Below, one piece after another: positions 56 to 35,533 of a DNA stretch of 35,777 nt. This stretch comes from an uncultured virus (IMG/VR IMGVR_UViG_3300044612_002689) (Duplodnaviria; Heunggongvirae; Uroviricota; Caudoviricetes): IMG/VR virus record IMGVR_UViG_3300044612_002689; one strand, written 5' to 3'. The notes beneath the pieces are model-generated. The model was not told where the DNA came from. It saw nothing but the letters and a program-made list of their open reading frames with translations, and did not search any database. Numbering within the stretch: the stretch's first letter is position 1; each line of letters begins with the position of its first letter. Made by a program: the position numbers and the translations under genes.

Positions 56-397
56 TTACCATCTTCTAGATCGTCTTTCATTCATAACCGGAGGTGATGT
101 ACTAATTTTTTGCAAAACACAATTCATGAATTTAATTCCATCTTGTGGTGTTTTATTTAATTTAGATAATTCCGTACCACAAGCCATTAATTTCACTAAA
201 TCAGTTGGGATTTTTTTAGAAGTAATAACCCCCATACCTAATTCCTTACAAGTAGGAATTGGATCAAGATTATTTAATGATAATACTTCAGTTGCACAAC
301 CAATAATTTCTGTTGGAATATCGTTTTGATTTTCTTTAATTACTCGTTTAACAATACGAACTAGATCTGCTTCTGTTAATCTTACAATTTTTTTCAT
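56..397 (-). CDS. Small hypothetical protein with N-terminal MKKIVRLTExDL-type tag
   Basis: Start moved to ATG at 397 (MKKIVRLTEADLVRIVKRVIKE). TATTTAT motif on the minus strand at 413-419. Confidence 0.75.
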   Translation of the reverse strand: MKKIVRLTEADLVRIVKRVIKENQNDIPTEIIGCATEVLSLNNLDPIPTCKELGMGVITSKKIPTDLVKLMACGTELSKLNKTPQDGIKFMNCVLQKISTSPPVMNERRSRRW

Positions 398-461
398 ATT
401 AAGTTTTTTAATATAAATATATGAATTGAAAAAAAACAATAATTTCAGAATATTTATTATC

Positions 462-1916
462 ATGAATAATAAAAAACTAATTAAAGAAATTCAAAAAATT
501 AAAAATTGTTTTGGATTAAATTTGTTGAATGAAAGTGTGGGACCAGGCGATAAATTAATTTTGGGTGCGTTAGATGCATCAAGTACAGGACTTGTAAAAA
601 CTTTGGGTACAGAACTTGCAACTCAGATTGAAAATTCAATTTTAACCTCCGTAAAAAATTCAGAATTAATTTTGAATAAAATGGGAAAAAAAATTGGTGA
701 CAATGTAAGTTTTGATGATATCAAAACACTTTATGGTCAAACAACAAAATCTTCAGCCGCAGAAATGGTTTTAAAAGAACTAGGATCGGAAGGTTCAAAA
801 GTTTTGGATGATCTTTTGTTAAATAAAATTAATCCAAAAAATTTAACTGCTTTAGGAAGTTATGTTAAACAACTTGATAAAACTAATCAACAAGCATTGA
901 AAACAAGTTTACAAGACTTACAGACACAATTTAGTAAAAGTATAGATGATGAGGCGACTTTTGAAACTGCTTGTGAGGTAATGGAGGCTACAATTCCAAA
1001 ATTAAAAGAACAGTTAAAAACCATCGAAATGGATCAAACTCTAAAAGTAGATTTAGAGAGAGTCTTAGATAGTTTTCAAACACAAATTAATACTCATAAA
1101 TTTTCAAAAGAACTTTCACCTTCTTCAACACCTCAAGTAAAAAATGTTGAGCCTAGTATTGACGACTGGCCCAACATGACTTTTCACGAAAAACCAAGTT
1201 ATACCCCAGTAAATCTAAAAACTTATTCTACGACATTTTCGAATAATAGTTTCGATCCAGAATTAATTGATTTCAATAACATTAAATTTAAGGAAGATGC
1301 ATTCCCTATGGAATGGATACAAAGACTTATTATTCAAGATGCGGAATCAATTGAAAAGTGGGGGTTGAAAAATTGGTTGGAAACAACAATAATCAGATCG
1401 ATTGGTGCCGGACTTCAACTTTTAAAAAGCATAGGTTTAGATATGTCCCCGATTGAAAAGGAGGCGACAATCAGAGATGCTGCCGAACTTTTTCCAATAA
1501 CAGGATTCGAAAAGTTTGGTACTGATAATTTTCGAGATTTCATTATTAAAAAATATAAAGATAATACTTTAAGGATTAATACGTCACTTCCTCCAAGTGA
1601 TTTGGCAAATTTTGACCCACGATGGTCAAGTCCCTTTAGTTGGGATTTTTCTATAGAGCCACCGACAACAAACACAAAAAATCAGTTAAATTATAATCAA
1701 CTTCAAAATTCTCAAGAAATACAAAAACAACTAGACAAATGGGATAAGTGGTACGATATGCCCAAAGAGGGTGATTATAATTATAAAACATGGATGGACA
1801 AACAAAAGAAAGATATGGAAGATTTGAAAAATAAAGGATTTTATAATATCAATACACTTCCTGGTATGAATGAATCATTGAACAGGGAAATAAATAAAAT
1901 AAAAAAACTTTTGTGA
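462..1916 (+). CDS. Polymorphic family member 1 (shared N-domain, variable C-terminus), putative virion protein
   Basis: Start moved to ATG 462 after TATTTAT at 451-457. N-domain aligns with 1913..3481 and 21475..23103. Tag-like helices at both ends (LIKEIQKIK; MNESLNREINKIKKLL). Confidence 0.75.
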   Translation: MNNKKLIKEIQKIKNCFGLNLLNESVGPGDKLILGALDASSTGLVKTLGTELATQIENSILTSVKNSELILNKMGKKIGDNVSFDDIKTLYGQTTKSSAAEMVLKELGSEGSKVLDDLLLNKINPKNLTALGSYVKQLDKTNQQALKTSLQDLQTQFSKSIDDEATFETACEVMEATIPKLKEQLKTIEMDQTLKVDLERVLDSFQTQINTHKFSKELSPSSTPQVKNVEPSIDDWPNMTFHEKPSYTPVNLKTYSTTFSNNSFDPELIDFNNIKFKEDAFPMEWIQRLIIQDAESIEKWGLKNWLETTIIRSIGAGLQLLKSIGLDMSPIEKEATIRDAAELFPITGFEKFGTDNFRDFIIKKYKDNTLRINTSLPPSDLANFDPRWSSPFSWDFSIEPPTTNTKNQLNYNQLQNSQEIQKQLDKWDKWYDMPKEGDYNYKTWMDKQKKDMEDLKNKGFYNINTLPGMNESLNREINKIKKLL

Positions 1917-3481
1917 AAAAAAGAACACTTAACGAAGAATTAGAAAAAATATCCCAGATTTTTAATGTTATGGGAATGGGATTTGGAGTTATAAAAGAAT
2001 CGTTGACACCAGGTCCCGGACCTACCGCATTATCAATTTTGGATGGTGCAACTCCAGGTATGGTTAAAACTTTAGGGTCAGAAATTGCAAGTCAGATTGA
2101 AACTTCAATTTTAAACACCGCAAAAAATTCAAAACTTATAACTCAAAAACTTGGAAAAAATGTCGGTGATAATCTTACCTTTGACGATCTTAAAACAATA
2201 ACTGGTGGAAGTACCAAAAGTGAAATTGCAAGTAATTTATTATCGATTGTCGGAAAAAGTCAGGCAGATTCGATATTACAAGATGTTGCGGATATAGTTG
2301 GTAATAAAAATTTTAAAATATTAGAAAGAAAAATTGTAGGTCTTGAAAAGATAGATAAGCAATTACATGATAGTGTAAAAAAATTTTTTAATAGTGCTTA
2401 TTTTGATTTGAGTCAGGGTCGAATGACACAAGGAGCAGTTGACATTTTGGAAATACAACTACCAATTATTTTGAAAAAAGTTGAAGAAAGTTTTATATCC
2501 CCGGACCTTAAAGATTTCATTAAAGAAAGTTGTTACAACACCCAACTCCAGTTAAACACTTTAAAACTTCAAGGACAATCTTCACCTATTTCTCAAAACC
2601 TACCAAATATAGATTCAACAGATCCACAATCATATTTAAACAAATACACAAAAGAAGAATTAGAAAAAATTCACAACTCTTTTGGTTGGAAAACGATCCG
2701 TACTGGATCTGGGGTTTCTAGTGGATGGAAATTTCATGTCTTTGGTGAAGACATAAAAGATTTGGTTTATTTGACTGATGCACTTACACCTGTAATTGAA
2801 AAATATGGAGCACATGGTAAGGTTGGGGGAACTGGACATCTCTCATTAGACGCATTTAAACCAGGTGGATATCAATATGGAAAACAGGGGGTAACAATTT
2901 ATATTCCAGTAGATGTTATAAATAGTAATTTACAAAAAAAAATGTTCGAAGATATACAAACTGCCATATCTGGATATAAAAAGGGTGGTACCATTTCAGG
3001 GGATAAAGCCTTGACCCCCGCAATTCATTATAGATATGAATTATTGGGACCCATTGATTATAAAACTGGGATCTCAACTGTATCACCAGGAATAGATCCA
3101 ATAACAAAAAAACCACTTCCGTCCGATTACTCAAACATGTATTCTAAAAACGAAGGAGGTCCCTATAAACCAAATGATGTACCTGACATTTTTGATTTAC
3201 CACCGGTTTCAATTCAAACACCACCACAAAAAAATACGAATTTCATATCGAATGTTCTTGGTGATGATAGTCTTATTGACTGGTCTAAAATTACCAATGC
3301 AAAAAACTCAAATGATTATAATTCATTAATAAAACAAGCATTAGACACTGGAGAGTTTAAATACATATCAAGAGGGGGTTTTGAAAATTATGGTATTCCA
3401 GATTTCAGACAATATCTCAAAGACAAATTTATTGATGATCAAGGTTTAACTGGTAATCCAGGAAAACCAGTTCAATTTTAA
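1913..3481 (+). CDS. Polymorphic family member 2 with OspF/LanKC-like phospho-Ser/Thr lyase domain
   Basis: GTG start overlaps the upstream stop (GTGA). Shared N-domain, then GWKFHV...HGKVG...QYGKQGVTIYIP...GDKALTPAIHYRYE, matching the order of class III/IV lanthipeptide lyase motifs. Confidence 0.65.
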   Translation: MKKRTLNEELEKISQIFNVMGMGFGVIKESLTPGPGPTALSILDGATPGMVKTLGSEIASQIETSILNTAKNSKLITQKLGKNVGDNLTFDDLKTITGGSTKSEIASNLLSIVGKSQADSILQDVADIVGNKNFKILERKIVGLEKIDKQLHDSVKKFFNSAYFDLSQGRMTQGAVDILEIQLPIILKKVEESFISPDLKDFIKESCYNTQLQLNTLKLQGQSSPISQNLPNIDSTDPQSYLNKYTKEELEKIHNSFGWKTIRTGSGVSSGWKFHVFGEDIKDLVYLTDALTPVIEKYGAHGKVGGTGHLSLDAFKPGGYQYGKQGVTIYIPVDVINSNLQKKMFEDIQTAISGYKKGGTISGDKALTPAIHYRYELLGPIDYKTGISTVSPGIDPITKKPLPSDYSNMYSKNEGGPYKPNDVPDIFDLPPVSIQTPPQKNTNFISNVLGDDSLIDWSKITNAKNSNDYNSLIKQALDTGEFKYISRGGFENYGIPDFRQYLKDKFIDDQGLTGNPGKPVQF

Positions 3482-3547: not shown

Positions 3548-3895
3548 ATGAGTAATTATTTAACACTTAGAAACACAGGGTGGTTGGTAACCGCACTTGT
3601 TTCGTTTATGCTAATTTTTTCTGGTTTCAACAAAGTAATCGGAAGCGAAGAAATGGTTCGTAATTTTACATCCATTAATTTACTTCCTTATTTGGCTCTT
3701 GTTGGTATTGCAGAATTACTGAGTGTTGGATTGTTGATTTATTCTCGAACTACATTGTACGGTTCGATTTTAATCACGTCCATCATGTCAGCAGCCGCTG
3801 TTATTCACCTATCTTACATGGGTGGATCAGGTATATTGATGCCAATTATGATTGGTGTTTTTTCGTGGGTTGCATATTATTTGAGAAACAAATAA
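3548..3895 (+). CDS. DoxX-like family membrane protein
   Basis: 115 aa, about four hydrophobic segments, SGFNK...GIAEL...AAVIHL pattern typical of DoxX-like proteins. Confidence 0.7.
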   Translation: MSNYLTLRNTGWLVTALVSFMLIFSGFNKVIGSEEMVRNFTSINLLPYLALVGIAELLSVGLLIYSRTTLYGSILITSIMSAAAVIHLSYMGGSGILMPIMIGVFSWVAYYLRNK

Positions 3896-3967: not shown

Positions 3968-5020
3968 ATGGGAAAAAGATTTATTATAAGTGAAGAAGAA
4001 AAATCATCAATCAGGGGGTTATATCGTCTTGATGAGGAAGATACAACTAAACTTTGTACTGAATTCAATACTGAATCAAAAACACTAGTAGTTGATTATC
4101 AAGATATTTTGAACGCTTATTCAGCATCAACAGAAGAAGAAACATTCAAGATAATCAATACTAAGATAGAAGAGGTTGCTAAAACATTAGTTGATAAAGG
4201 TATCCCAGATAGAACCGCATGTGAAGCAGGATTAATATATATTAGACCCGGGTTCAAAGATAAAAAATATATGACAGTAGTGGATCCAAATTATCACACA
4301 ATATATTCTTTTGACCAAAATCTTAATGATGTTACCCCTTACTTAGATCCCAATCAAAAAAATCCTATACCAATTATTACCGGAAAAGAATCAGACTTGG
4401 TCCCAACAGGAAGAATAAAAGATTTTGTAAATCTTTCGCAATTTGACCAATACAAATGGGTAACGGCCATGAAAAAACTAAGTAAAAAATTTGAAGATGT
4501 TACCGATGAAGATTGGAAATCAATTACAGACGAAGATAAAAAAAATTATCCGGTAACAGTTAATGATCTTTTTTCAGTTTTGGGAAGTACAACAGTTTAC
4601 CCACAAATATTTTCTACAGAACCAGGAAAAATTAAGTTATATGGTGGAGATAAATATCCTGAAGGTAAAAATAAGTTTGACATTGCTTTTTTAAAGACTT
4701 TAAATGGAACACTCTTGTCGAATGCAATTCATAGAATGTTAAACAAACCAGAAAGAGTTCAAGCATTTGCAAACGCATTTAAAAGAACATCTAAAACAGT
4801 GGACGAACCATCAGATTATCTTAATTTAAGTCTTGGGTGTATCAATGTACCTTATAAAATCTATGACAATGAAACATTTAGAGAAATTTTAAGGAATTCA
4901 TGGATTTTTTATATTTCACCCGAAAAAGTTAATTACTATGTTCAATCGATTGAGCAAGTCATTGATAATCCAGAGAAATGTTATTCTCCGGATTCTTTGG
5001 GAGTTAAAAAAACTTCTTAA
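3968..5020 (+). CDS. Tagged protein with L,D-transpeptidase (YkuD)-like catalytic motif
   Basis: N-tag FIISEEEKSSIRGLY, then VVD..HTIY, PIITGK and AIH...LSLGCINV (His/Cys motif with longer than usual spacing). TATTTAT at 3956-3962. Confidence 0.55.
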   Translation: MGKRFIISEEEKSSIRGLYRLDEEDTTKLCTEFNTESKTLVVDYQDILNAYSASTEEETFKIINTKIEEVAKTLVDKGIPDRTACEAGLIYIRPGFKDKKYMTVVDPNYHTIYSFDQNLNDVTPYLDPNQKNPIPIITGKESDLVPTGRIKDFVNLSQFDQYKWVTAMKKLSKKFEDVTDEDWKSITDEDKKNYPVTVNDLFSVLGSTTVYPQIFSTEPGKIKLYGGDKYPEGKNKFDIAFLKTLNGTLLSNAIHRMLNKPERVQAFANAFKRTSKTVDEPSDYLNLSLGCINVPYKIYDNETFREILRNSWIFYISPEKVNYYVQSIEQVIDNPEKCYSPDSLGVKKTS

Positions 5021-5062: not shown

Positions 5063-6058
5063 ATGAGTAAGGGACAATTAATTTCTGAACAAGAAAAAAA
5101 AAGAATATTAAATCTCCACAAAAACTATGATTTCAAACCTTTAATAAAAGAATCTAGGTATGATGGTCAATTAGATGCAAATGGTTCATTCACAACAACA
5201 ACAGAATTCAAATTTATTATACTATCAATTCTTGATAAAAAATATAGTTTTTTAAATGGGAAAAGTTTCACAATTAAGGTCGGAAAAAGGATATATGCCA
5301 CTAAAGATCAAAAAATGAGATTTTACATCGGTAAGTATAAGGGGGTTAATTTATACGCAGATCTTCCTTGTCCTAAAATTTCTCCAATTTTAAATGAATT
5401 TGAATGGAATGTGATTGCTCAAGGAACAAGTGGACTTATTAATATTGGCAAAGGTAAGTCAGGATCAGGTGCACCTGGTTTACCTGTAGGTTTAAGAAGT
5501 ATGTTTTGTTGTGGTGATAAAATGAAAAGTTACACGGAAAGACAATATGCTGTTGCATACCCCAAACCAGGTGAAAAAGGATATTGTAATGATAAAAAAC
5601 GAACCAAAGGATGTAGTGATCAATGTAATGCAAAACCTTGTTTTCCAGGATCACCTTGTCAACAAGTACAAGGATGGTTTGTAGATGAAGACGGATGTGA
5701 GTTTAGAACTGGACCTGGTGGATTCGAAAATAAAAGTAAATGTGAAAAATGTTGTTTTGGTAGAGACCCTAAACCAGAACCAAAACCAGAACCTAAAAGG
5801 TGTATAGATGGTTCTAAACAATGTACAAATTTTAAATCTTGTGAGGGAAAAACTGTCTATGAAAGATGTGAAAAGTGTGAAAAAATAAAAGAAATACAAA
5901 GATGTCTTAGTAAAGTACCAGATTTTGGAGATATTTTGATTGATGGTAAATTTGGTTGTGAAACAGATCATCTTCTTAACAAAATTGGTTATACTCAAAG
6001 ACCAGTCACTGATGAAATGATAAAAGAACTATGTGATTCAGTTGTTGTCCGAGGATAA
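5063..6058 (+). CDS. Tagged Cys-rich protein with C-terminal peptidoglycan-binding-like domain
   Basis: N-tag LISEQEKKRILNLH, many Cys, PKPE repeat linker, and IKEIQRCL...IDGKFGCET resembling the PG_binding_1 DGxFGxxT motif. TATTTAT at 5044-5050. Confidence 0.6.
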   Translation: MSKGQLISEQEKKRILNLHKNYDFKPLIKESRYDGQLDANGSFTTTTEFKFIILSILDKKYSFLNGKSFTIKVGKRIYATKDQKMRFYIGKYKGVNLYADLPCPKISPILNEFEWNVIAQGTSGLINIGKGKSGSGAPGLPVGLRSMFCCGDKMKSYTERQYAVAYPKPGEKGYCNDKKRTKGCSDQCNAKPCFPGSPCQQVQGWFVDEDGCEFRTGPGGFENKSKCEKCCFGRDPKPEPKPEPKRCIDGSKQCTNFKSCEGKTVYERCEKCEKIKEIQRCLSKVPDFGDILIDGKFGCETDHLLNKIGYTQRPVTDEMIKELCDSVVVRG

Positions 6059-6124: not shown

Positions 6125-6421
6125 ATGAAGATAATAATTTCTGAAAAACAAGAAAAGATCATCAAAAATTATGAATTGATTAATTTTATAATTGACGAAA
6201 TATTGAATCAAAAAAATGTTTGTGAATATAAAGAAATGGGTTATTATGGATGGAATAAGTTTTTTAATGACGTAATTAACGAATCAATAATTAAACTTGA
6301 GGAATTAAGTGACGATATGGACACCAAAATGTCAATTTTTAGGTTTCTGACAAATGACTCGGAACATATTAAAAAATTTTATGATAAAAAAATTAAAAAA
6401 TGTAAAAATGGCAAAGGCTAG
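6125..6421 (+). CDS. Hypothetical protein with MKIIISEKQ tag
   Basis: ORF with tag. TATTTAT at 6114-6120. Confidence 0.7.
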   Translation: MKIIISEKQEKIIKNYELINFIIDEILNQKNVCEYKEMGYYGWNKFFNDVINESIIKLEELSDDMDTKMSIFRFLTNDSEHIKKFYDKKIKKCKNGKG

Positions 6422-7119: not shown

Positions 7120-7638
7120 ATGAAAAATAACCTTTTTGAAGTTGATAGATCCGAGAAAAATAGGATCTTAGAAATGCACACCAAAGCATCCAAATTGAAT
7201 TACCTATTCGAATCTGGAAACTTGATGGATTTGACAGTCCAGGACATTATCGAAATGATTCTTACTTGTTATAATCTTTCTGCCTTGAATTACAAATTGG
7301 CAGATTTCATTCCCGATTTAACTGACGATGAAAGAAAGAAATTTACCGATTTTGCAGATTTGGACTCTCAAATCATCACTACCGGTAGAGAAAATGGTTT
7401 TCCACAACAGTTCAACGTTCCCGGACAGGAAACAATGAATGGTTTTTGGAAAAACAGACTTGATATTCTCACAAACCCAGATTTAACAGATGAAGAAAAA
7501 TCAACTAGAGTTAACCTGGAAGATATGAAAACTCTTTATTCCAAAATTTCAGATTTAATTATGGGGTATGGGTTCAACGATTTCCCATCACTTCAGACTG
7601 CGGTTGATGAATTTATCAGCACAGTATCTTTAAATTAA
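7120..7638 (+). CDS. Hypothetical protein with EKNRILEMH tag
   Basis: N-tag LFEVDRSEKNRILEMH...YLFE|S. TATTTAT at 7097-7103. Confidence 0.7.
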   Translation: MKNNLFEVDRSEKNRILEMHTKASKLNYLFESGNLMDLTVQDIIEMILTCYNLSALNYKLADFIPDLTDDERKKFTDFADLDSQIITTGRENGFPQQFNVPGQETMNGFWKNRLDILTNPDLTDEEKSTRVNLEDMKTLYSKISDLIMGYGFNDFPSLQTAVDEFISTVSLN

Positions 7639-7671: not shown

Positions 7672-8007
7672 ATGAAAATTTATTTAGTATCCTTCTTTTT
7701 ATTTATTTCTACGTTTTTTGTCTCACAAACTAATGTTAAAGATTTTAGTCTCAACACTAATAATACATTCACACCCAATAATGACGGTGTAAATGACTTA
7801 TTTATGAGTAGATTATCCTTTACACCAAAAAAATATTATTTGGTTATCAGAGACAAGAAAAACCGGTTGGTTTACAAAACAAACAATCCTGGAGAATACT
7901 GGGATGGTGGCAAATCAGAAACAGGAATATATGATTTTAAAATTGTATGTGTTACTGATAATAACAAACGTTTTGTAAAAAAAGGAAAAGTAGTATTGTT
8001 TAGATAA
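7672..8007 (+). CDS. Signal peptide + stand-alone T9SS type-B C-terminal sorting domain (gliding motility-associated, CHU_C-like)
   Basis: NTFTPNNDGVNDLF...LVIRDKKNRLVY...YWDG...GIYDFKI...KKGKVVLFR matches the FTPNGDGxND/WDG/GxY type-B CTD pattern. Confidence 0.8.
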   Translation: MKIYLVSFFLFISTFFVSQTNVKDFSLNTNNTFTPNNDGVNDLFMSRLSFTPKKYYLVIRDKKNRLVYKTNNPGEYWDGGKSETGIYDFKIVCVTDNNKRFVKKGKVVLFR

Positions 8008-8048: not shown

Positions 8049-8330
8049 ATGAAAAAAATAACACTTAACGAAACACAGTTATTACAGTTAATTAAAAAAA
8101 TAGTTAAAGAGTCCAGAAGAGACCCTAGAGAAACAGAATCCATGAGACTTGATCTTGTGGATTCTGTTGTTAATAGGTTTAGTGAATATGGTGACGAGTA
8201 TTACGATGCACTAAAACAGTTCAATGAAGATTACCCACTCACTAAAATCAAGGTTTTATCACCAAGAGATTTGTACGAACCAGAAAGAGTTGTTCCTGGG
8301 GTAAAAACCACATTTGGAAAAGATTTCTAG
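8049..8330 (+). CDS. Hypothetical protein with MKKITLNETQL tag
   Basis: Tag ends IVKE|S. TATTTAT at 8027-8033. Confidence 0.7.
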   Translation: MKKITLNETQLLQLIKKIVKESRRDPRETESMRLDLVDSVVNRFSEYGDEYYDALKQFNEDYPLTKIKVLSPRDLYEPERVVPGVKTTFGKDF

Positions 8331-10599: not shown

Positions 10600-11139
10600 T
10601 TAGATACCTTTAATTAGATTAATGCATTGTTTAAGATATTCCTTTGCTCTTGCTGATGGTGTTAGATCGTCATCTTTAGATTGTAAATCAAGTACTTTTT
10701 CTATATCTTTGACTAACTCAGTGCCATGTTCATTTTCTTTATAAAGTTGTACAATTTTTTCCATTGCCGGTAAACATTGACCGTTTGTCTCATCAAAATA
10801 ATTTTTATTTCTGAATTTATTCAAATGATTCATCATCTCGTATGCCAGGTGAGTTCCACCATCTTTAATACTTTTATTAAGTCTAATATTATTCAATAAT
10901 CCTAATGAATCAACAAGATGACCAATTCCTCCACGTCTTTTTTGTATTCCAGGACCGTAAGTTATAAAATCATCACTTAATCCAGCAATTTCATCTAGAG
11001 GAAGTACATTTTCAGGAATACACCTTGCATTTGGTTTTTTCTTATCTTTTTTTGGTGATGATCCCACACTTTGATCTTCTAATATGGTTTGTTTGATCAA
11101 ACTAATTAATTCATTTTCCGTCAATCTAATTTTTTTCAT
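10600..11139 (-). CDS. Hypothetical protein with MKKIRLTENEL tag
   Basis: Tag ends TILE|D. Minus-strand TATTTAT at 11155-11161. Confidence 0.75.
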   Translation of the reverse strand: MKKIRLTENELISLIKQTILEDQSVGSSPKKDKKKPNARCIPENVLPLDEIAGLSDDFITYGPGIQKRRGGIGHLVDSLGLLNNIRLNKSIKDGGTHLAYEMMNHLNKFRNKNYFDETNGQCLPAMEKIVQLYKENEHGTELVKDIEKVLDLQSKDDDLTPSARAKEYLKQCINLIKGI

Positions 11140-11792: not shown

Positions 11793-12764
11793 CTACTGAT
11801 TACTTTTTACCACGAAATTTACGTTATTTAAACAATCAATAGTATTAGGATATCCACCAGCATATGAGATGGCACTTTGTATTGATTCCTCAATTTCCGT
11901 AAGTTTGGTGAAGATAGAAACATCCTTATAATCAACTAGTTTTTTAACACCTTCAATTCGATTAGTTTTTCCTGATTGAGATGAGGAAGCACTCCCCCAA
12001 AATTCTTTGTGCCAACTACCAGTTACAAGATTTTTAACTTTTTGACCTGGGGATTCTTGATAACCAGATAACATACCACCAACCATTACCATAGTGGCAC
12101 CCAAAACTAAACTTTTTACAATATCACAATTTTGTTTGATTGATCCATCTGCAATGATTGGGACTTTTGCAACCGAAGAACATTCAAGAATCATATTTGC
12201 TTGCCATCCTCGATTACCAAATCCAGTAGAATGGTATGTTGTACAAGCAGAACCTCCACCGATACCACATTTTATTGCGTCACAACCCCAATTTTGAAGA
12301 TCTATGACTGATTGTGGTGTACAAACATTACCACCTATTACAAATGTGTCTGGCATTCTATTTTTAATATAGTGAACCATTTTTTTCATTTTTATACAAT
12401 GACCATGAGCAATGTCAATTGTTATAAAATTGGGAATGTAGTTTTTTGAAACTAAAGAATCAATAAGTTCATATGAGTCATCATTTACACCTAGGGAAAT
12501 GGATAACATTAGATCTAGATCTGTTATTTTTTTACAAAAATCGACCATATCCACATCAAATCTATGCATAATATAAAAGTAACCATTTTCAGCCAATTTA
12601 ATTGCCAGACTTTCATCAATCACACTTTGCATATTTGCGGGAACTATTGGTAAATTAAATTTAAAACCTCCAAAATGACAACTTGCATCACAGTCCGAAC
12701 GAGATTCAATAATACTGTAAGAAGGAATTAAAGTGATTTCATCAAAGTCAAATTTTGTTTTCAT
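11793..12764 (-). CDS. guaC: GMP reductase (type 2)
   Basis: FDFDEITLIP...SRSDCD...LPIVPANMQ, YFYIMHRF, IDIAHGH, GIGGGSACTT (catalytic Cys), IIADG, WGSAS. No CBS domains. Confidence 0.9.
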   Translation of the reverse strand: MKTKFDFDEITLIPSYSIIESRSDCDASCHFGGFKFNLPIVPANMQSVIDESLAIKLAENGYFYIMHRFDVDMVDFCKKITDLDLMLSISLGVNDDSYELIDSLVSKNYIPNFITIDIAHGHCIKMKKMVHYIKNRMPDTFVIGGNVCTPQSVIDLQNWGCDAIKCGIGGGSACTTYHSTGFGNRGWQANMILECSSVAKVPIIADGSIKQNCDIVKSLVLGATMVMVGGMLSGYQESPGQKVKNLVTGSWHKEFWGSASSSQSGKTNRIEGVKKLVDYKDVSIFTKLTEIEESIQSAISYAGGYPNTIDCLNNVNFVVKSNQ

Positions 12765-21474: not shown

Positions 21475-23103
21475 ATGCAAAGAAATAGAAAAATGACACT
21501 TAATGAGGAATTTGCTCTTATGAGAAAAATGTTTCATAAAATGGGTGTCACAGAAGTTCTGAAAGAAAACAAAATAAGATTAAATGAATCATTAGGATCA
21601 GGTTTACCAAGTGTATTGGATGGGCTCACACCGGGGTCATCTGTTGCACTAATCGGTAAAACAGTTCTTCCTGAAATCGAGAATGCAATTTTGATGTCGG
21701 CAAAAAATAGTGATTTAATCATGACTAAACTAGGTAAAAAAGTTGGTGATAATTTGACATTTGACGATATAATCAGTGGTGGTTTGATGGGTACAACTAA
21801 AAGAGAAGTTGCACAAAGTATTGTAGAAGAGTTAGGAGAAAGTGGTGTTACCCTTATGAAAAATTTAGGAGATATTTTAGGAGGTGCCAACGTAACTTCA
21901 CTAAAAAATCAAATTGCTGAATTATCAACTGAACCTCAAAGACAGGTACAAAGTAAATTACAGAACATTCAAAAACAAATTGATGTTCCTGATCAGGCAA
22001 AAAAGGCAGCAAATTTAGAAACAGTCGCTGACTTATTACCTGGTTTAAGAAATGCAGTAGATAGTGATATAAATTTAACCGCAACTCAAAAAACCGCAAT
22101 AAACGAATTATTTGATTCACTTGAAGCCCAGGCAAATGCTTATAAAACAAAAAGTAGTGATGTCTTTGAACTAGATCCGGCAATTCAAAAAACAATAAAT
22201 GAATTACAGGAGGGAAATTATTCATCAATAAGAAATGTAATGAACAGTAATCCCGACGTGAAACTCAAGTTGTCCGATGGAGAAATCACGAGTTTGAAAA
22301 ATGCTGTTGATGAAATGAGTGATGAAGAAATCAATAAGGTATTTGATGACTTAGTGGTGCCTATATTAAAAAATGAAAAACCAAAACCCTCAAGTGGTGG
22401 AGGTTATTTGTATAGTGGTATTCCAATACCCCCGAATATAAATGAAAAAACAGATCAAATCATAACTGTGATTCATAAGATTATTGCGGGTATATTTGGA
22501 ATTGTCCCAGCAATTTTGAACGGACTTTTGGGAGCATTAAAAGGAAACACAAGAAAGACTATAGTGTGGATACTAGTAATAGCAGCCGTTTTGTATCTTG
22601 GATATGAAGTATACCAATATTTTGCCAACGGTGGGTTTAAACGAGATGTAAAAGATACTATTACCGCAGATTCAAAGGACGAAGATTGTTGCGAGGCAAT
22701 AATTGGGTATAATGACCTTAATAGTGATCAGCAAAAATTTGTTGTCGTTAAATATGGGTGTAAAGACACAAAAAACAACACTACGAATGGGGTTGCGTCT
22801 TTTGGGGTTGATGAAAACACGGGGTGTGTAATTGCTGTGAGAAAAGGTGGTACTTCAGAAAAATGGACAGTAAGTGCTGGGGGTGTCGGGGAACCATGCA
22901 GCGGAAATAACGTAACTCCACCACCAAACAATTCTTGTAAATGTACACTAGCAACTATGCAAGCGAGTCTTACTGCCGATGGAATTAATTATTCTAATGA
23001 GGCATTTGACACTACAAGTTGTACTGGTACTTACGATGAAACAGTAACACTTGAGGATGGTAATACTAAAGTGGTTAACCAAACATTTGAATGTGATAAA
23101 TAA
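21475..23103 (+). CDS. Polymorphic family member 3: shared N-domain, TM helices, Cys-rich C-domain
   Basis: N-domain aligns with 462 and 1913 (IENAILMSAKNSDLIMTKLGKKVGDNLTFDD). TM segment IVWILVIAAVLYLGY. TATTTAT at 21455-21461. Confidence 0.75.
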   Translation: MQRNRKMTLNEEFALMRKMFHKMGVTEVLKENKIRLNESLGSGLPSVLDGLTPGSSVALIGKTVLPEIENAILMSAKNSDLIMTKLGKKVGDNLTFDDIISGGLMGTTKREVAQSIVEELGESGVTLMKNLGDILGGANVTSLKNQIAELSTEPQRQVQSKLQNIQKQIDVPDQAKKAANLETVADLLPGLRNAVDSDINLTATQKTAINELFDSLEAQANAYKTKSSDVFELDPAIQKTINELQEGNYSSIRNVMNSNPDVKLKLSDGEITSLKNAVDEMSDEEINKVFDDLVVPILKNEKPKPSSGGGYLYSGIPIPPNINEKTDQIITVIHKIIAGIFGIVPAILNGLLGALKGNTRKTIVWILVIAAVLYLGYEVYQYFANGGFKRDVKDTITADSKDEDCCEAIIGYNDLNSDQQKFVVVKYGCKDTKNNTTNGVASFGVDENTGCVIAVRKGGTSEKWTVSAGGVGEPCSGNNVTPPPNNSCKCTLATMQASLTADGINYSNEAFDTTSCTGTYDETVTLEDGNTKVVNQTFECDK

Positions 23104-25694: not shown

Positions 25695-26324
25695 ATGAAG
25701 GATTTGGACAACAAAGAAGGTTACTCTATTGTTATTGCTACAATGTGGAAGAGTGAGTTTCTACTTAAAATGTTACCAATTTATCAAAAAGAAGAAAAAA
25801 TTAAAGAAATCATTTTAATAGATAACGAATACCAATCAAGACCAAAAATCGAAGATTTGTCCAAAATTATATACTATTCTGAACACAAAAATTTATTTGT
25901 AAATCCTGCGTGGAATAAGGGAGTTTCATTGTCAAAATATAAACTAATTATTGCAAATGATGACATTTTGATCCCAAATATCGGAGATTTATTAGATTTA
26001 ATAGATAAAAACGACTATGATTTTTTAGGGATAAGTTGGGAAAATTCTGACGATTTAAGAATAGAACCGGTAAATGAATTTTTAAGAAAGGGATATGGTT
26101 GTTTTATGTACATAAAAAATTACTTTATTGTACCAGAGGAGTTTAAAATTTTCAGAGGAGATTTTTTTCAATACAACAATTCAAAAAATCCCGGGATTAT
26201 TTTCAACCCCGAATTAGATGGTGAAATTGCCGCAACTAGAAAATCAAATGAAATTTTCAGAGAAATTAGTATAAATGATTTGGAAACTTACAAAGATAAA
26301 TATGAAATAAAAACAGAAGAATGA
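25695..26324 (+). CDS. GT-A fold glycosyltransferase (GT2-like)
   Basis: YSIVIATMW, EIILIDN, NLFVNPAWNKG, IANDD (DxD-like). Confidence 0.75.
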   Translation: MKDLDNKEGYSIVIATMWKSEFLLKMLPIYQKEEKIKEIILIDNEYQSRPKIEDLSKIIYYSEHKNLFVNPAWNKGVSLSKYKLIIANDDILIPNIGDLLDLIDKNDYDFLGISWENSDDLRIEPVNEFLRKGYGCFMYIKNYFIVPEEFKIFRGDFFQYNNSKNPGIIFNPELDGEIAATRKSNEIFREISINDLETYKDKYEIKTEE

Positions 26325-27049
26325 AAATTGCCGTCTGTGTCCATTTATATCATATTGATATGTTAGATTCTATAAGATCATATTTGAGTAATCTAGAACA
26401 TGAATATGATTTATATATTGGATTGACTAAAAATTATCCTCAAAGTTTTCTTCATAATCTTAAACAAACAAATAAAAATACCAATATTGTTTTTGTACAA
26501 AATATAGGAATGGATGTGGGTGGTTTTTTACAAATATATAAAACAATAAGAGATTCATATGATTTAATTTTAAAAATTCACACAAAAAAAGGTTTGGGAT
26601 CACCCACCAGACCATCAATACATTTGTCAAGGCATGGTTTAGAAAGTGCAAATCATAGGGGACAGGTTTGGTTTAACGGTCTGATGCATGGAGTACTTGG
26701 TTCGAAAGAACGTGTTGATAGAATTATTGATAACTTTAAAAATAACCCCGATTGTGGAATGGTTGGGGCTAAAAAAAACAATAATTTTGCGGTAAATTTA
26801 AGTTGTATGAATGAAATATTTTCATGGGTCAATTTAAAAACAAATACTGATGGTCACTTTTTTGTTGGGGGGACAATTTTTTGGATAAATAATGATATTT
26901 TGAAAAAATATTTAACAGATGATGTTATTGATAAAATTTTAGAAATCTCTCCACCAGGTTATGTACATGAACCATCAATAAATCATGCAATGGAAAGAAT
27001 TTTTGGTTCATTAGTATATGTAGAAAATAAACAAATTTATATTCTATAA
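26321..27049 (+). CDS. Rhamnan synthesis protein F (RgpF) family protein
   Basis: IAVCVHLYH, NIGMDVGGFL, YDLILKIHTKK, FVGGTIFW, HAMERIF. Confidence 0.8.
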   Translation: MKIAVCVHLYHIDMLDSIRSYLSNLEHEYDLYIGLTKNYPQSFLHNLKQTNKNTNIVFVQNIGMDVGGFLQIYKTIRDSYDLILKIHTKKGLGSPTRPSIHLSRHGLESANHRGQVWFNGLMHGVLGSKERVDRIIDNFKNNPDCGMVGAKKNNNFAVNLSCMNEIFSWVNLKTNTDGHFFVGGTIFWINNDILKKYLTDDVIDKILEISPPGYVHEPSINHAMERIFGSLVYVENKQIYIL

Positions 27050-27050
27050 G

Positions 27051-29471
27051 ATGAATCATATAGTAATTACTAGAGTCAATTTCCAGGACGATACATTATT
27101 TCAAGAATACTTTGAAATAATGAAAAAGTACTATATCCCATCGATAAATTCTCAAACAAATAAAAACTTCAAGATAGGTCTTGTGATCAATCCAAAACAC
27201 ATAGACTTAATTAAACATTTATTGGACGATAATGTTATATTTTTTTCGACATTCGAAGAGGTAAGAAATTATTGTTACACAAATAATATAGAAATTCAGA
27301 CAAGACACGATTGTGATGACTGGATGAGAGAAGATTATATTGAAACGATTCAAAACTTATACACAAAAAATAAAGACTCTTTTGACAAATTCATAATTCA
27401 TTCTAAAGTATTCAAACTTGACCACAATACTGGTGAAATCTATGAACATGGTTTGGATTATAGTAAGGGTAATTTCACTTCTATGTTTTTAACTTTGTGT
27501 CAAAAAGAAGTTACTAATTTTGTCTATGATAAAAATCATAGATTTATGAATGAGATTACACCGAACATTTTTTTATTAAAAGATCAAAATACAAGATTAG
27601 TTGTTCATGGAAAAAATTCTTATTCTAAAATAAATCCTCAAGACAAAAAAATAGATAAAATAATAGATTACGATTTAACAATCGTGACCCCGACTTTTGA
27701 TAATATTGAATATTTGTCTGATTTTTTTCTTTCCATAATTAAATCGAAAAAAAAATACAATATAGAAGTTTTAATTGGTATTGATAATTGTAAGAAAACT
27801 AAGGAGTATGTCTCAAAAAGATTTAACTCACTCAAAAACGATTTTAAATTTTACTTTTTTGATAAAAGTGTAGGACCCTATGTTATTAGAAATTCTTTAT
27901 CTAAAATTTCGAATTCCAAAAAAATATTATTTGTTGATTCTGATGATATTTTACATGAAGATCTTATTACCGATACAATCAACGCACTTGACTCTCATGA
28001 TACATTCAGATTTAAATTTTATAATTTCAAGAATAACTCAGATATAACAAATTTCAAAAAAGAAAATATTAATAATTTTTTATCTATTGGTCAATTAGGA
28101 ATAAATAAAAAAATATTATTAGATTTCAAAGGTTTCGAACCTTGGGTTTGTAGTGCAGATTCTGAGTTTAAAATGAGAGAAGAAATAAAAAAAGTTAATA
28201 CCCTTTTATCAAATAAAATTCTTTATTACCGGAGAAGACACGAAAAAAATCTAACCAAAAAAAAGGAAACCGATTTAAATTCAAGTATTAGACAAAAATA
28301 TTTCTCAATTATAAGAAAAAGACGAGAAGAAAAAATAGTTGATAAAATTACAGAAATGACCATCACAAAATTTTATCAAATTTTATCAGAAAATGAATTA
28401 ATTTTAAAAAATGAACATTGTTCTTTATACCCCTATGATCTTGAAAAACCAGAATTATCAGTAATAATACCAACTTACAATAATGTTGATTTTATTGACG
28501 ATTGTTTGTCATCTGTTGAATTTTCGTCTTTAAATCAAAATGTTGAGATATTGATCGGAATTGATGGGTGTATTAATACTCTGGAACATTTTACTAAAAG
28601 AGCAATTGGACCAAACGTAAAGATATTTTACTTTGATGAGAATAATGGACCTTATTCTATTAAAAATACCTTGGCATCAATATCAAAAAGTAACAAATTA
28701 ATTTTTTTTGATTCGGACGACTTAATGTTAAAAGATATGATTACCTACATGAATGAAAAATTAGATCATTTTGTTTGTATCAAACCAAGAATGTTAAATT
28801 TTGATAACTTAACAAACACCGAAATTAAAGGTTTAAATAACTATGGTGAGGGAGTATTTGGAATACAAAAAGATGTTTTTTTGAATATGAATGGTTTTGA
28901 ACCATGGATGTGTGCTGCTGATTCAGATTTTATGGGAAGACTGTATAAATCAAATCCAAAAATTAATTTCAGCAAAAAACCACTGTTTAAGAGAAGAATT
29001 CACTCGAATAGTTTGACTACTAATAGAGATACTGGTATGAGGTCAGTATTAAGACATCACTATTTCAAAATTATGAAATCTAAAAAAGGGTCCGGTAATC
29101 CAGAAATATTGAACACAAGAAACTATACCTATTTTGATTCTATGATTGACTATTCTTTCATTGAAAATTCTTTTTTAGAAAAAAAACAAAATGCAATTAA
29201 TAATATTAATTCTGTCATCAACAAACCTGTAAGAAAAGTGGTTGAGTCACATAGACCAGATAAGTACAACAGAGTTGCGGATAGATCAATTACAGATAGA
29301 TTACTCAATAAAAGTAGAATTGTATTACCAAACCAAACAAAAACGGATTCAATCAATCAAAACGGAGAAGTTTTAAGAAAACCATCGAACGAAATTCCAA
29401 AACCTCAAGCCAAAAATAATAAAGATTATAAATCAGCAAATTTTGTTATTGGAAATAAATTTCATAGATAA
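27051..29471 (+). CDS. Triple-domain glycosyltransferase (putative rhamnosyltransferase-like domain + two GT2 domains)
   Basis: PSINSQTNKNF...TRHDCDD, then two homologous GT2 repeats (IGID.C, GPY.I.N.L, F.DSDD, GFEPW.C.ADS.F). Confidence 0.8.
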   Translation: MNHIVITRVNFQDDTLFQEYFEIMKKYYIPSINSQTNKNFKIGLVINPKHIDLIKHLLDDNVIFFSTFEEVRNYCYTNNIEIQTRHDCDDWMREDYIETIQNLYTKNKDSFDKFIIHSKVFKLDHNTGEIYEHGLDYSKGNFTSMFLTLCQKEVTNFVYDKNHRFMNEITPNIFLLKDQNTRLVVHGKNSYSKINPQDKKIDKIIDYDLTIVTPTFDNIEYLSDFFLSIIKSKKKYNIEVLIGIDNCKKTKEYVSKRFNSLKNDFKFYFFDKSVGPYVIRNSLSKISNSKKILFVDSDDILHEDLITDTINALDSHDTFRFKFYNFKNNSDITNFKKENINNFLSIGQLGINKKILLDFKGFEPWVCSADSEFKMREEIKKVNTLLSNKILYYRRRHEKNLTKKKETDLNSSIRQKYFSIIRKRREEKIVDKITEMTITKFYQILSENELILKNEHCSLYPYDLEKPELSVIIPTYNNVDFIDDCLSSVEFSSLNQNVEILIGIDGCINTLEHFTKRAIGPNVKIFYFDENNGPYSIKNTLASISKSNKLIFFDSDDLMLKDMITYMNEKLDHFVCIKPRMLNFDNLTNTEIKGLNNYGEGVFGIQKDVFLNMNGFEPWMCAADSDFMGRLYKSNPKINFSKKPLFKRRIHSNSLTTNRDTGMRSVLRHHYFKIMKSKKGSGNPEILNTRNYTYFDSMIDYSFIENSFLEKKQNAINNINSVINKPVRKVVESHRPDKYNRVADRSITDRLLNKSRIVLPNQTKTDSINQNGEVLRKPSNEIPKPQAKNNKDYKSANFVIGNKFHR

Positions 29472-31416: not shown

Positions 31417-31959
31417 ATGAAAAAAGTAATTAGACTTTCAGAATCTCAACTTCGAAATATCGTTAAAAAGGTAATTTTAGAAATTGGTGGGTATGATGAC
31501 CCGTTTGTTATGGCTTCACACGGAAGACATGTTTTTAGTAATTCATTAGAAATGATAAGTGAATTATCTTTGATGATGGCAAAAATAATTTCCTTATTAC
31601 TGGATACAGACTTCGATAATGTGGAAAAGAAAGAGTTTTTTGAGTCGATCGCAATGAAACTAGAACGAGTAATTTTTAGGTTGGATAAAATACTAGGAGA
31701 TTTTACTGAGGATGAACTCAGAGAAAAATCCAAAGTTTTAATCAAAAAACTTGGAAAATTAAAAGATAAATTTATCATGCTGGATCAAATGGATGTTTCA
31801 GATTATGAGTCTTACAATATTGATTTTAATTATTTGGTTGAAGAAACTTCATCGATTTTAGAGTTTTTAAGTGATTTTTCCGGTTCATTAAGAAGAACGG
31901 TAGATACTTTTAGTGATAGGTTTAACCGAGACAATGACCCCAATTTCGGATTTAATTAA
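31417..31959 (+). CDS. Helical hypothetical protein with MKKVIRLSESQL tag
   Basis: Tag ends VILE|I. TATTTAT at 31404-31410. Confidence 0.75.
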   Translation: MKKVIRLSESQLRNIVKKVILEIGGYDDPFVMASHGRHVFSNSLEMISELSLMMAKIISLLLDTDFDNVEKKEFFESIAMKLERVIFRLDKILGDFTEDELREKSKVLIKKLGKLKDKFIMLDQMDVSDYESYNIDFNYLVEETSSILEFLSDFSGSLRRTVDTFSDRFNRDNDPNFGFN

Positions 31960-33893: not shown

Positions 33894-34382
33894 ATGAATA
33901 TTTTTATTTTAGATTACAACACGAAAAAATGTGCTCAATATCATTGTGATAAGCACGTAGTAAAAATGATCCTTGAAACAGCACAACTTTTATGTGGTGT
34001 TCATCATATGACCCCCCAAGTTACCCCTCAAGTTCCCTACAAGTTATCTCACAAAAATCACCCCTGTGCGATTTGGGCTCGAGAATCACTATCTAATTAT
34101 CTTTATCTTTGTGATCTCGGATTGGAGTTGTGTAAAGAGTATACTTATCGTTACGGTAAACGACACAAGTCCCAACAAGTTATTGAGTGGTGTATGATTA
34201 ACAAACCACAAATACCGGACATTGATTTTACAACTCCTCCTAAAGCAATGCCAGATGAATACAAAGTTATCGATGTGGTAGAATCTTACAGAAATTACTA
34301 CATGGGATCGAAAAAGAATTTTGCCGTGTGGAAAAATAGAAATATACCTGAGTGGTTTTCAAAGAATGAAGTATTTATGTAA
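33894..34382 (+). CDS. Pyrimidine-dimer DNA glycosylase / endonuclease V (DenV)-family protein
   Basis: MNIFILD...HCDKHVVKMILETAQLL...HKNHPC..W...EYTYRYGKRH...AMPDEYK...YRNYY. Confidence 0.8.
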   Translation: MNIFILDYNTKKCAQYHCDKHVVKMILETAQLLCGVHHMTPQVTPQVPYKLSHKNHPCAIWARESLSNYLYLCDLGLELCKEYTYRYGKRHKSQQVIEWCMINKPQIPDIDFTTPPKAMPDEYKVIDVVESYRNYYMGSKKNFAVWKNRNIPEWFSKNEVFM

Positions 34383-34384
34383 AT

Positions 34385-35533
34385 ATGAAATTAGTTTATC
34401 CATTATCTAAAAAAGGAACTAAGACCTCTGGATTTGGTCCTAGATGGGGAAAACATCATAATGGTATTGACATTGCCATACCTGATGGTTCTGATGTGAT
34501 TTCAGTTGCAGATGGTGAAGTTGTTAGATCCGACATGAGAAATAAACGTGGTTATGGTAATTTTATAATAATCAAACATAATGTTGATGGAGAAAATTTC
34601 TATTCAGCCTACGCACATTTAACTCAAAGACTTGTTGATGTGGGTGATAAAGTTAAACAGGGTCAAAAAATTGCCGAATCTGGTGGTGGACAAGGTTTAG
34701 AAGGTGGTGGTGGTAAGTCAACTGGGCCACATTTACATTTTGAAATTAGAAAATCAGAATCTGGAAATTGGGTAAATCCTGAGAAATATCTATCTGGGGC
34801 GGAAATAGTAAGTGGTGAAATCGGTAATAAAGAGACAGTCACAATGACCGTAGCACAAAAGAAAAAAGTTCCAAAAATGGAATCTAAGACTTTTTTTTCT
34901 GGAGGAAACCCAATAAAAATTATATCAACACCAAGTGATCATGCCAAAAGATCCACACCAGATTGGTCATCCAGACATGCTTGGGATATACAAGCACCAA
35001 TAGGCACTTCAGTTTATTCTTTGACACATGGAAAAGTGGCAAAAAAACACGAATCTAGTAAAAAGAAAAAAAATATTTTCGGGACTCAGTTGTCCATTTC
35101 TGGTGAAAATGGTGATCCAAGTGTTTTTTACACACATTTGGATTCTGTAAAGTTAGAACCCGGAGACAAAGTAAAACCTGGTGATTTCATTGGGAAAATA
35201 ACAGAGTGGCCTTCCTATCCAAGTTCAAGCCACGTACACATAGGAACGGATCAAGGAAAAGATATTTTTGAATTTATGGATAAGGAGGGTAATATCAAGA
35301 ATGCTCCAGAAGTACCTTCAGAAGAAGAAGCACCAGAACAAGTAGAGTTCAATGTAGTAAAAGTTGATAAAGAAAAAATAAAAAAGGCATTAGAAGATTT
35401 TTTTTCAACCGGAACTAAAAAACTTGATGATATTGAGGCAGAATTAAACAAACAGAACGCCACAATGTATCCCAACAAAAAAATTTCAGAAGAAAAAAAT
35501 AGAATTCTGGATATTTTTTCAAAAATTTTATAA
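34385..35533 (+). CDS. Tandem M23 peptidase (peptidoglycan endopeptidase) with C-terminal tag
   Basis: Domain 1: HNGID...YAHL...GPHLHFE. Domain 2: AWDI...YTHL...HVHIG. C-terminal ISEEKNRILDIFSKIL. TATTTAT at 34372-34378. Confidence 0.88.
   Translation: MKLVYPLSKKGTKTSGFGPRWGKHHNGIDIAIPDGSDVISVADGEVVRSDMRNKRGYGNFIIIKHNVDGENFYSAYAHLTQRLVDVGDKVKQGQKIAESGGGQGLEGGGGKSTGPHLHFEIRKSESGNWVNPEKYLSGAEIVSGEIGNKETVTMTVAQKKKVPKMESKTFFSGGNPIKIISTPSDHAKRSTPDWSSRHAWDIQAPIGTSVYSLTHGKVAKKHESSKKKKNIFGTQLSISGENGDPSVFYTHLDSVKLEPGDKVKPGDFIGKITEWPSYPSSSHVHIGTDQGKDIFEFMDKEGNIKNAPEVPSEEEAPEQVEFNVVKVDKEKIKKALEDFFSTGTKKLDDIEAELNKQNATMYPNKKISEEKNRILDIFSKIL

Follow-up and report, generated by a model that had tools for sequence, protein, structure and literature searches.

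A predicted LanKC/LanL-type phospho-Ser/Thr lyase with a candidate propeptide in a T4-like jumbo phage

A stretch of 35,777 nucleotides from an uncultured virus (IMG/VR record IMGVR_UViG_3300044612_002689), in the following called the window, was analysed for a gene that carries a candidate phospho-Ser/Thr lyase domain. One open frame, 1913..3481 on the plus strand, spans the whole finding. It starts with GTG, overlaps the stop codon of an upstream paralogue by 4 nt and codes for a protein of 522 aa, termed P0001. The N-terminus starts identically in orthologues of 78-89% identity. An earlier, sequence-only reading of this DNA had quoted a series of lyase motifs. All of them were located in P0001, in the order claimed, at nt 2723-3040, and the span 2680-3180 given for the domain falls within the lyase domain as delimited here. 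The AlphaFold2 (AF2) model of whole P0001 had a mean predicted local distance difference test score (pLDDT) of 76.5. Its N-terminus showed a helix (aa 3-19) followed by disorder at aa 20-35 (pLDDT below 50), and linkers flank the lyase domain on both sides. The parts of the gene, all on the plus strand, are as follows.

1913..1999, plus strand: predicted propeptide, aa 1-29, with leader helix 3-19 and a disordered linker ending V-I-K-E29, then S30 (candidate prohead-protease site)
2027..2578, plus strand: all-helical N-terminal domain, aa 39-222 (AF2 model), common to two paralogues of the same phage
2645..3208, plus strand: phospho-Ser/Thr lyase domain, aa 245-432, delimited by AF2, Foldseek, VIA-align and profile comparison with the PDB
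2723-2740, plus strand: motif GWKFHV, aa 271-276, with the codons of W272 (2726-2728), K273 (2729-2731) and H275 (2735-2737)
2813-2827, plus strand: motif HGKVG, aa 301-305, with the codon of K303 (2819-2821)
2873-2908, plus strand: motif QYGKQGVTIYIP, aa 321-332, with the codons of K324 (2882-2884) and Y330 (2900-2902)
2999-3013, plus strand: motif GDKAL, aa 363-367, with the codon of D364 (3002-3004)
3023-3040, plus strand: motif IHYRYE, aa 371-376, with the codon of R374 (3032-3034)
3242..3439, plus strand: small three-helix C-terminal module, aa 444-509 (AF2, pLDDT about 90)

Relatives of P0001 were collected with a word index (71 matches) and by an exhaustive HMMER search against 1.84 billion representatives (96 matches, 64 of them at E <= 1e-10). 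The motifs listed above are the invariant columns of this family in either set. BLAST of the 71 relatives against P0001 showed a variable N-terminus, followed by a conserved core (aa ~250-427) and another conserved module (~449-505). The isolated domain, aa 245-433, was then modelled with AF2 from 93 sequences (pLDDT 96.5, predicted template modelling score 0.91). The best Foldseek match in the PDB was CuvL (8cav, E 3.2e-6). Among the matches listed at ranks 1-32 (28 rows, similar chains past rank 10 being omitted) all were LanKC, LxmKY, HopA1, SpvC, VirA or OspF structures. They included the class III synthetases CuvL, ThurKC, SalKC and PneKC, the LxmY chain (chain B) of the class V LxmKY complex (PDB 9dk1) and HopA1 of P. 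syringae; unrelated designed proteins came next, at E > 0.1. VIA-align, an independent all-against-all structural search of 48,161 chains, gave the same picture. CuvL was aligned at Z 11.5 (155 residues, root mean square deviation 4.7), followed by SalKC at 11.2 and ThurKC at 10.9. SpvC (2q8y) reached Z 8.8 (140 residues, root mean square deviation 3.2), LxmY 8.4 and HopA1 7.8. The first unrelated chain was eIF4E at Z 5.7. An eIF4E-like or ferredoxin-like fold was rejected, with Z <= 5.7, far under the lyases.

Three profiles were compared with the PDB. A1 comprised 24 sequences over whole proteins (412 positions) and had no match; A2, with 93 sequences, matched PneKC at E 0.27 only. The domain-only profile A4 (27 sequences, i.e. 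the window domain plus 26 short relatives) retrieved 11 distinct sequences at E <= 10, and every one was an N-terminal lyase domain of a class III synthetase (ThurKC E 6.3e-11, 9wop/9wj0 E 6e-9, PneKC about E 5e-6, SalKC E 1.6e-4). OspF and SpvC chains were not matched by A4 in the PDB at E <= 10. The sole recurring Pfam family among the relatives was RamC_N (PF25816), found in 2/12 and, for distant representatives, in 12/30. It was present at E <= 0.01 in 23 of the 93 members of A2, and one of the 30 distant representatives, P0141 with 27.7 bits, passes the 27-bit cut-off. The window domain itself had no match to RamC_N with the Pfam hidden Markov model. Taken together, the motif pattern goes well beyond chance, and there is hardly any doubt that aa 245-432 form a domain of the OspF/SpvC/LanKC lyase superfamily. 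The sequence-only reading had assigned the domain to this superfamily and had proposed a Foldseek comparison with SpvC/OspF and LanKC as a check. The fold matched these very lyases, and Foldseek, VIA-align, profile A4 and the conserved Lys/His/Lys/Lys/Asp/Arg residues all bear the assignment out.

The alignment of profile A4 with ThurKC paired ThurKC K65/H67/K94/K117/D152/R163 with K273/H275/K303/K324/D364/R374 of P0001 (ThurKC chain index plus 3 equals the published numbering, as checked on K94, K108, K117, D152 and R163). The ThurKC mutants K65A, K94A and R163A are reported to abolish dehydration, and H67A, K117A and D152A to impair it (PMC10604976). According to the same source, K65 and R163 correspond to Lys104 and Arg213 of SpvC, H67, K94 and D152 to its acid/base residues His106, Lys136 and Asp201, and K117 stands in for Arg148. 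By way of these equivalences, i.e. indirectly, the SpvC set Lys104/His106/Lys136/Asp201/Arg213 is kept in P0001. The VenL set W50, K51, H53, K80, K103, D137 and R149 maps onto P0001 as well, with W272 at W50 and K324 at K103; these two VenL residues are described as specific to class III/IV lyases (PMC8341899). The six catalytic residues and W272 were invariant in all 24 sequences of A1 and at least 90% conserved in the 93 sequences of A2. With this residue set P0001 is likely to be a catalytically active phospho-Ser/Thr lyase.

Could the domain be a catalytically dead phosphopeptide-binding module which docks onto a phosphorylated host or phage protein? In two of the short relatives, P0115 and P0137, neither the second Lys nor the Asp is retained; judged by these losses, they are probably inactive. 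Further, a counterpart of ThurKC R191 (SpvC R220) was not identified in P0001; a conserved Arg after R374 was absent from A1 and A4, and the profile alignment to ThurKC stops at chain index 167, ahead of R191. Against a dead module stands the invariance of the six mapped catalytic residues in P0001 and 24/24 sequences of A1, which is typical of selection for catalysis. We consider such a module highly improbable.

Within the superfamily the domain of P0001 belongs to the LanKC/LanL branch, because the Trp and the second Lys are present; it is not of the OspF type. The broad OspF/SpvC/LanKC label of the sequence-only reading is narrowed to the LanKC/LanL type, by the Trp and the Lys for SpvC Arg148. 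With the lyase domains of the class III/IV lanthipeptide synthetases LanKC and LanL, P0001 shares the fold, the profile match and the catalytic set including W272 and K324. It differs in being phage-encoded, in the lack of a fused kinase or cyclase and in that a precursor peptide is not evident. It adds an N-terminal leader and helical module and the three-helix C-terminal module, stays below the Pfam threshold and is without a recognised Arg191 equivalent. Lacking both kinase and cyclase, P0001 does not qualify as a lanthipeptide synthetase. The type III effectors OspF, SpvC and VirA have the same fold and have the Lys-x-His pair, the base Lys, the Tyr, the Asp and the Arg in common with P0001. 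They would be alike also as stand-alone lyases delivered into another cell, if the delivery reading discussed below holds. In contrast to OspF and SpvC, P0001 carries a Lys (K324) at the position of SpvC Arg148, an equivalent of Arg220 was not seen and a sequence-level match is absent; delivery would be by phage ejection and not by type III secretion, and a bacterial target would take the place of a MAP kinase. The LanY lyases (LxmY, CaoY; HopA1-like, PF17914), which belong to class V lanthipeptide and thioamitide pathways, are free-standing members of the same superfamily. LanY is described as lacking the Lys-x-His pair, with an Arg in its place, and as working in a complex with the kinase LanK (PMC9486802). 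The phage family keeps the Lys-x-His pair; therefore the LanY type is ruled out.

The claim that no kinase or cyclase is fused to the lyase was confirmed. The rest of P0001 consists of the helical domain and the three-helix module, and Pfam families of kinases or LanC-like cyclases occurred in 0/93 relatives. Separate kinases were searched for in the surrounding genome, a record of 187,384 bases with an estimated completeness of 64%. PF00069 (Pkinase) had no match in this record, while it matched in 12 of 14 control genomes, and it was absent from five related viral records. The Pfam scan covered 29 open reading frames (ORFs) within the window and 145 outside it, and yielded no kinase family, APH-like ones included, among them; very divergent kinases could escape Pfam. 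The 145 were those of 130 aa or more, out of 165 ORFs of at least 110 aa outside the window. A LanK-like kinase, as it accompanies LanY, was not found among the scanned ORFs. A recognisable precursor peptide was not found near the lyase gene either; the small leader-bearing Cys proteins nearby resemble other leader-tagged proteins of the phage. One such protein lies in the window.

59..397, minus strand: small leader-bearing Cys-containing protein; homologues directly precede the lyase gene in four related phages

These homologues, which have 103-114 aa and conserved Cys residues, are located at L006:1806-2117, L007:4642-4953, L009:4558-4902 and L010:5004-5327. The protein could be a partner, an inhibitor or a substrate of the lyase.

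These data bear on the possibility that P0001 is the lyase half of a split dehydratase, similar to class V LanK/LanY, in which an unseen phage or host kinase would phosphorylate Ser/Thr of phage proteins or peptides and the lyase would then form dehydro-amino acids there, e.g. for cross-links or a RiPP-like product (RiPP, ribosomally synthesised and post-translationally modified peptide). The domain is nearer to RiPP lyases than to OspF (LanKC domains only in the profile search; Z of 11 versus 8.8), the LxmKY complex 9dk1 is among its structural matches, stand-alone LanY enzymes work complexed with a separate kinase according to PMC9486802, and small leader-bearing Cys proteins adjoin the gene in several phages. 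Moreover, 36% of the genome is unseen; as the record is 64% complete, the remainder could encode a partner kinase. Kinase and cyclase families were nevertheless absent from the scanned ORFs of the phage, from the five related records and from the 93 family members. The retained Lys-x-His pair is at variance with LanY, and the leader-bearing proteins of the phage include enzymes of ~300 aa, unlike RiPP precursors. A split dehydratase is thus regarded as quite unlikely.

That the lyase is phage-encoded, as had been claimed, is upheld by the 187-kb virus record, which contains a T4-type capsid protein, portal, terminase and prohead protease. By Pfam the virus is a T4-like myovirus (Gp23 major capsid protein E 1.5e-73, gp20 portal E 2.4e-73, T4-type large terminase). 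Its gp21-family prohead protease, Peptidase_S77, is encoded at C1:45951-46688 (E 1.4e-22). For the capsid protein, identity to deposited phages reaches about 47% at most; its nearest counterparts come from a Microcystis phage, from Flavobacterium phages and from huge uncultured phages. The T4 comparison is relevant for the N-terminus of P0001. All internal head proteins of T4 are reported to enter the prohead via a short capsid-targeting sequence, and they are described as a diverse anti-defence set with the targeting sequence as the only common feature (PMC3012670). The protease gp21 removes propeptides and cuts T4 Alt at ITE-6 and LTE-619 (PMC5694885).

The leaders observed on genes near the lyase gene were encoded as a degenerate regular expression. 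This expression matched 15 of the 272 ORFs of this genome, always within the first 45 residues, and nothing in the other 46,102 residues; with shuffled N-termini the mean was 0.1 matches and the maximum 2. Thirteen of the 15 ORFs lie at C1:93,660-122,865, around the lyase gene, and the leader-bearing proteins include PG_binding_1 and VanY proteins. The 142 lyase-family proteins with a Met start were sorted by expression into 16 with this leader type, 48 with a second type and 78 with neither; all leader counts given here, those for the genome included, are too low, since they rest on the expressions only and several of the 'neither' proteins have related leaders by eye. Inspection by eye shows a third, similar leader on many of these 78. 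Forms of about 170 aa are leader-free. A potential cleavage site, [LI]-x-E-[SG], followed the second-type leader within 30 residues in 20 of 30 proteins compared with 8 of 415 control windows (1.9%). The 30 proteins were N-termini collapsed at >=70% identity, and the controls were 30-residue windows from elsewhere in the same proteins.

Leaders are about 20 residues long, come in few, highly similar kinds and often end in or contain (I/L)-x-E. In the window the expression matched the ORFs 56-463 (minus strand), 3968-5020, 5063-6058 and 31417-31959, and the genome-wide matches range over C1:59,882-122,865. By eye 6125-6421, 7120-7638, 8049-8330 and 10600-11139 (minus strand) are also leader-bearing. 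The product of 5063-6058 is a very Cys-rich protein of 331 aa with a short Pro/Glu/Lys repeat and without a family match. The same leaders occur on unrelated proteins of other uncultured phages.

The shared leaders may represent a capsid-targeting or propeptide code, judged from their distribution and position. Like the T4 system, the phage combines a short N-terminal leader on many unrelated cargo proteins, a gp21-type protease and (I/L)-x-E sites. Unlike in T4, the leaders fall into three or four types, carried by 15 genes or more, and their sequences are unrelated to the one of T4. The injected effector postulated by the sequence-only reading gains indirectly from the leader and the (I/L)-x-E pattern, which would be consistent with T4-style capsid targeting and prohead processing. 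By this analogy we give packaging and prohead processing of P0001 an even chance.

The same enzyme may instead be an ordinary intracellular protein made during infection, with a leader that serves assembly, localisation or regulation. The lyase gene is ~45 kb away from the head genes in this genome, the relatives of ~170 aa are entirely without a leader, and leaders are also found on the PG_binding_1 and VanY cell-wall enzymes, which could act at lysis. Yet the arrangement of leader, disordered linker and (I/L)xE[SG] fits known gp21 sites and is enriched over control windows as given above, the genome encodes a gp21-type protease, and in four relatives the gene resides between the genes for tail sheath and tail tube. 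An unpackaged enzyme appears rather unlikely to us.

This gene order was seen when related viral loci were collected, 11 in number, on IMG/VR contigs of 10-138 kb. Five related records were checked and are 17-42% complete, implying genomes of about 300 kb. In L006, L007, L009 and L010 the lyase gene is preceded by the genes for the tail sheath and a small leader protein and followed by those for a 272-aa protein and the tail tube. Sheath (E 6.2e-62) and tube (E 1.7e-23) were identified with PHROGs on L009 and transferred to the other three by BLAST clustering. The related-loci search with P0101 gave no viral relative. A scan of GTDB with one narrow pattern, too narrow to exclude divergent cellular relatives, had two weak matches: one in an archaeal metagenome-assembled genome (L015) with 27% identity, and a 21-residue match.

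Another site of action was considered, namely the periplasm or cell wall at entry, where an envelope-directed eliminase could use phosphorylated or otherwise O-substituted Ser/Thr or a non-protein phosphoester as a substrate, in place of cytoplasmic phosphoproteins. The distant relative P0122 joins the lyase domain to PG_binding_1, cell-wall enzymes are among the other proteins with a leader in this phage, and the phage has many glycosyltransferases. On the other hand, the characterised members described in the sources cited here all act on pSer/pThr in peptides, and the phosphate-binding Lys and Arg are conserved in P0001. A wall-binding domain is present in only one of the 93 relatives, and the model of P0001 has no signal peptide-like or wall-binding part. 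This makes an envelope substrate very unlikely.

What does the N-terminal module contribute? Two paralogues in the window share it with P0001, and an octamer precedes the gene pair.

426..1916, plus strand: upstream paralogue (E 1.3e-28) that shares leader, site and helical domain with P0001 and has a different C-terminal domain
21475..23103, plus strand: further paralogue of the N-terminal module (542 aa, E 2.4e-22), whose C-terminal domain is different again
412..419, plus strand: TATAAATA, octamer resembling a T4 late promoter, ahead of the two-gene unit and 43 nt before the ATG at 462

The ATG at 462 is probably the true start of the upstream paralogue. The N-terminal ~240 residues of P0001 are the region common to both paralogues, and in a three-way alignment the (I/L)-x-E29, S30 and G34 in the disordered stretch were invariant. 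Each of the three proteins has a C-terminal domain of its own; the layout of the family is therefore leader, site, helical module and a variable C-terminal 'warhead'. Tandem arrays of paralogues were present on related contigs (L005:3415-10682 with four in a row; also L004:59-4946). A homologue search with aa 1-240 retrieved five near-identical orthologues only. The helical domain had no Foldseek match in the PDB or BFVD and nothing usable in the ESM Atlas. With the whole P0001 model the PDB search yielded the lyase matches again, none to the N-terminal domain, and the BFVD search 0 matches at E <= 0.001. The non-lyase C-terminal domains of the paralogues had no match in Pfam, PHROGs or the ESM Atlas. 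Of 12 phage lyase proteins, taken from the own genome and the loci, 8 have the three-helix C-terminal module. Outside lyase proteins it was found solely as a partial copy in the adjacent paralogue, and in the relative P0040 it precedes the lyase domain. This small module may help to choose the target. The octamer TATAAATA, which we liken to the T4 late-promoter consensus, had 13 matches of its type in the window versus 6.3 expected, with a maximum of 12 in shuffled sequences.

These observations suggest how P0001 may operate. The leader helix, aa 3-19, would send the protein to the prohead core as does a capsid-targeting sequence in T4. The gp21-type protease of the phage would cleave after E29, and the mature protein, composed of the helical domain, the lyase and the C-terminal module, would be ejected along with the DNA. 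The chemical roles are deduced from residues conserved with experimentally mutated enzymes. K303 would take the alpha-proton from a pSer or pThr residue, the enolate would be stabilised by K273, probably with the help of Y330, and the leaving phosphate would be protonated by H275, which is held by D364. K324 and R374 would bind the phosphate. The products would be dehydroalanine or dehydrobutyrine plus phosphate; therefore the site could never be phosphorylated again. Speculatively, the targets are exposed pSer/pThr residues on host proteins, e.g. activation loops of Ser/Thr kinases or their substrates. OspF and HopAI1, which according to PMC9486802 act on MAP kinases, provide the analogy.

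Kinase-based abortive-infection systems such as Stk2 exist in bacteria. That P0001 counters kinase-based immunity, as had been proposed from the sequence, is suggested by analogy and we regard it as doubtful; action against HipA-like toxins, proposed in the same place, is speculative. The reading of P0001 as a prohead-processed, ejected, stand-alone LanKC/LanL-type phospho-Ser/Thr lyase of a T4-like jumbo phage is, in our judgement, evenly poised. A more general proposition, which we consider rather unlikely, is that jumbo T4-like phages, probably of Bacteroidota, pack a large, polymorphic set of leader-tagged and protease-matured cargo enzymes into the head (at least 15 genes in this phage), and that this cargo includes an injected LanKC-type lyase which permanently erases host phosphorylation sites.

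Several points weigh against an ejected phospho-lyase, among them the arginine for which a counterpart was not identified and the possibly unseen kinase, both discussed above. As a single sequence P0001 had no match in Pfam, PHROGs or the PDB, so the relationship is visible only with profiles and structure. A tblastn search with P0001, P0068 and P0101 of 50,697 GenBank phage records returned no relative. Peptidase_S77 was found in only one of the five related records, these being 17-42% complete. The PG_binding_1 fusion in P0122 points to the envelope and not to the cytoplasm, and the leader and the (I/L)xE pattern could serve another purpose. Finally, by analogy with T4, TATAAATA gives a weak hint at late transcription, and its weakness counts on the same side.

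Beta-elimination, which removes protein phosphate irreversibly, is known from a handful of effectors that pathogenic bacteria inject into animal or plant cells and from lanthipeptide biosynthesis. A report of a phage-encoded phospholyase or phosphothreonine lyase was not found among the papers listed by full-text literature searches. New are the phage setting, the leader/propeptide layout, the modular N-terminal domain and the companion C-terminal module. If P0001 is active and injected, phages could permanently switch off host signalling by Ser/Thr phosphorylation or kinase-based defences. It would then be the first 'phospho-eraser' of a phage and a counterpart of type III effectors, with OspF chemistry aimed at bacterial kinase signalling or kinase-based immunity. 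In that case, compact, kinase-independent lyases of this kind could also be put to use in phosphoproteomics and in the introduction of dehydro-amino acids. For non-model T4-like phages, a cargo-packaging code that lends itself to testing is indicated by the leaders held in common and by the modular design of the N-terminal domain.

Other genes of the phage were noted in passing. Directly downstream of the lyase gene a DoxX-like membrane protein is encoded (3548-3895, E 4.2e-9). The ORF 7672..8007 contains a CHU_C type IX secretion sorting domain (E 4.5e-9) and the G+C content is about 30%; the domain and the low G+C hint at a Bacteroidota host, and the CHU_C ORF hints at use of the host secretion system. 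Among distant lyase relatives, P0141 and P0143 have zinc-ribbon regions after the lyase domain. Auxiliary genes of the window are located at 11793-12764 (minus strand), 25695-29471, 33894-34382 and 34385-35533. They code for an IMPDH/GMP-reductase family protein, a glycosyltransferase block (GT2, RgpF, rhamnosyl transferase), a DNA glycosylase for pyrimidine dimers and a peptidase of the M23 family, which was matched over two stretches. Outside the window, at C1:118195-119442, C1:128623-129108, C1:62272-62940 and C1:160995-163309, we found a TnpB/OrfB_IS605 gene, a weak match to an ART-PolyVal ADP-ribosyltransferase, the C-terminal domain of an arginyl-tRNA-protein transferase and a cREC_REC plus HAD_SAK_2 pair (RNA-repair-type module).

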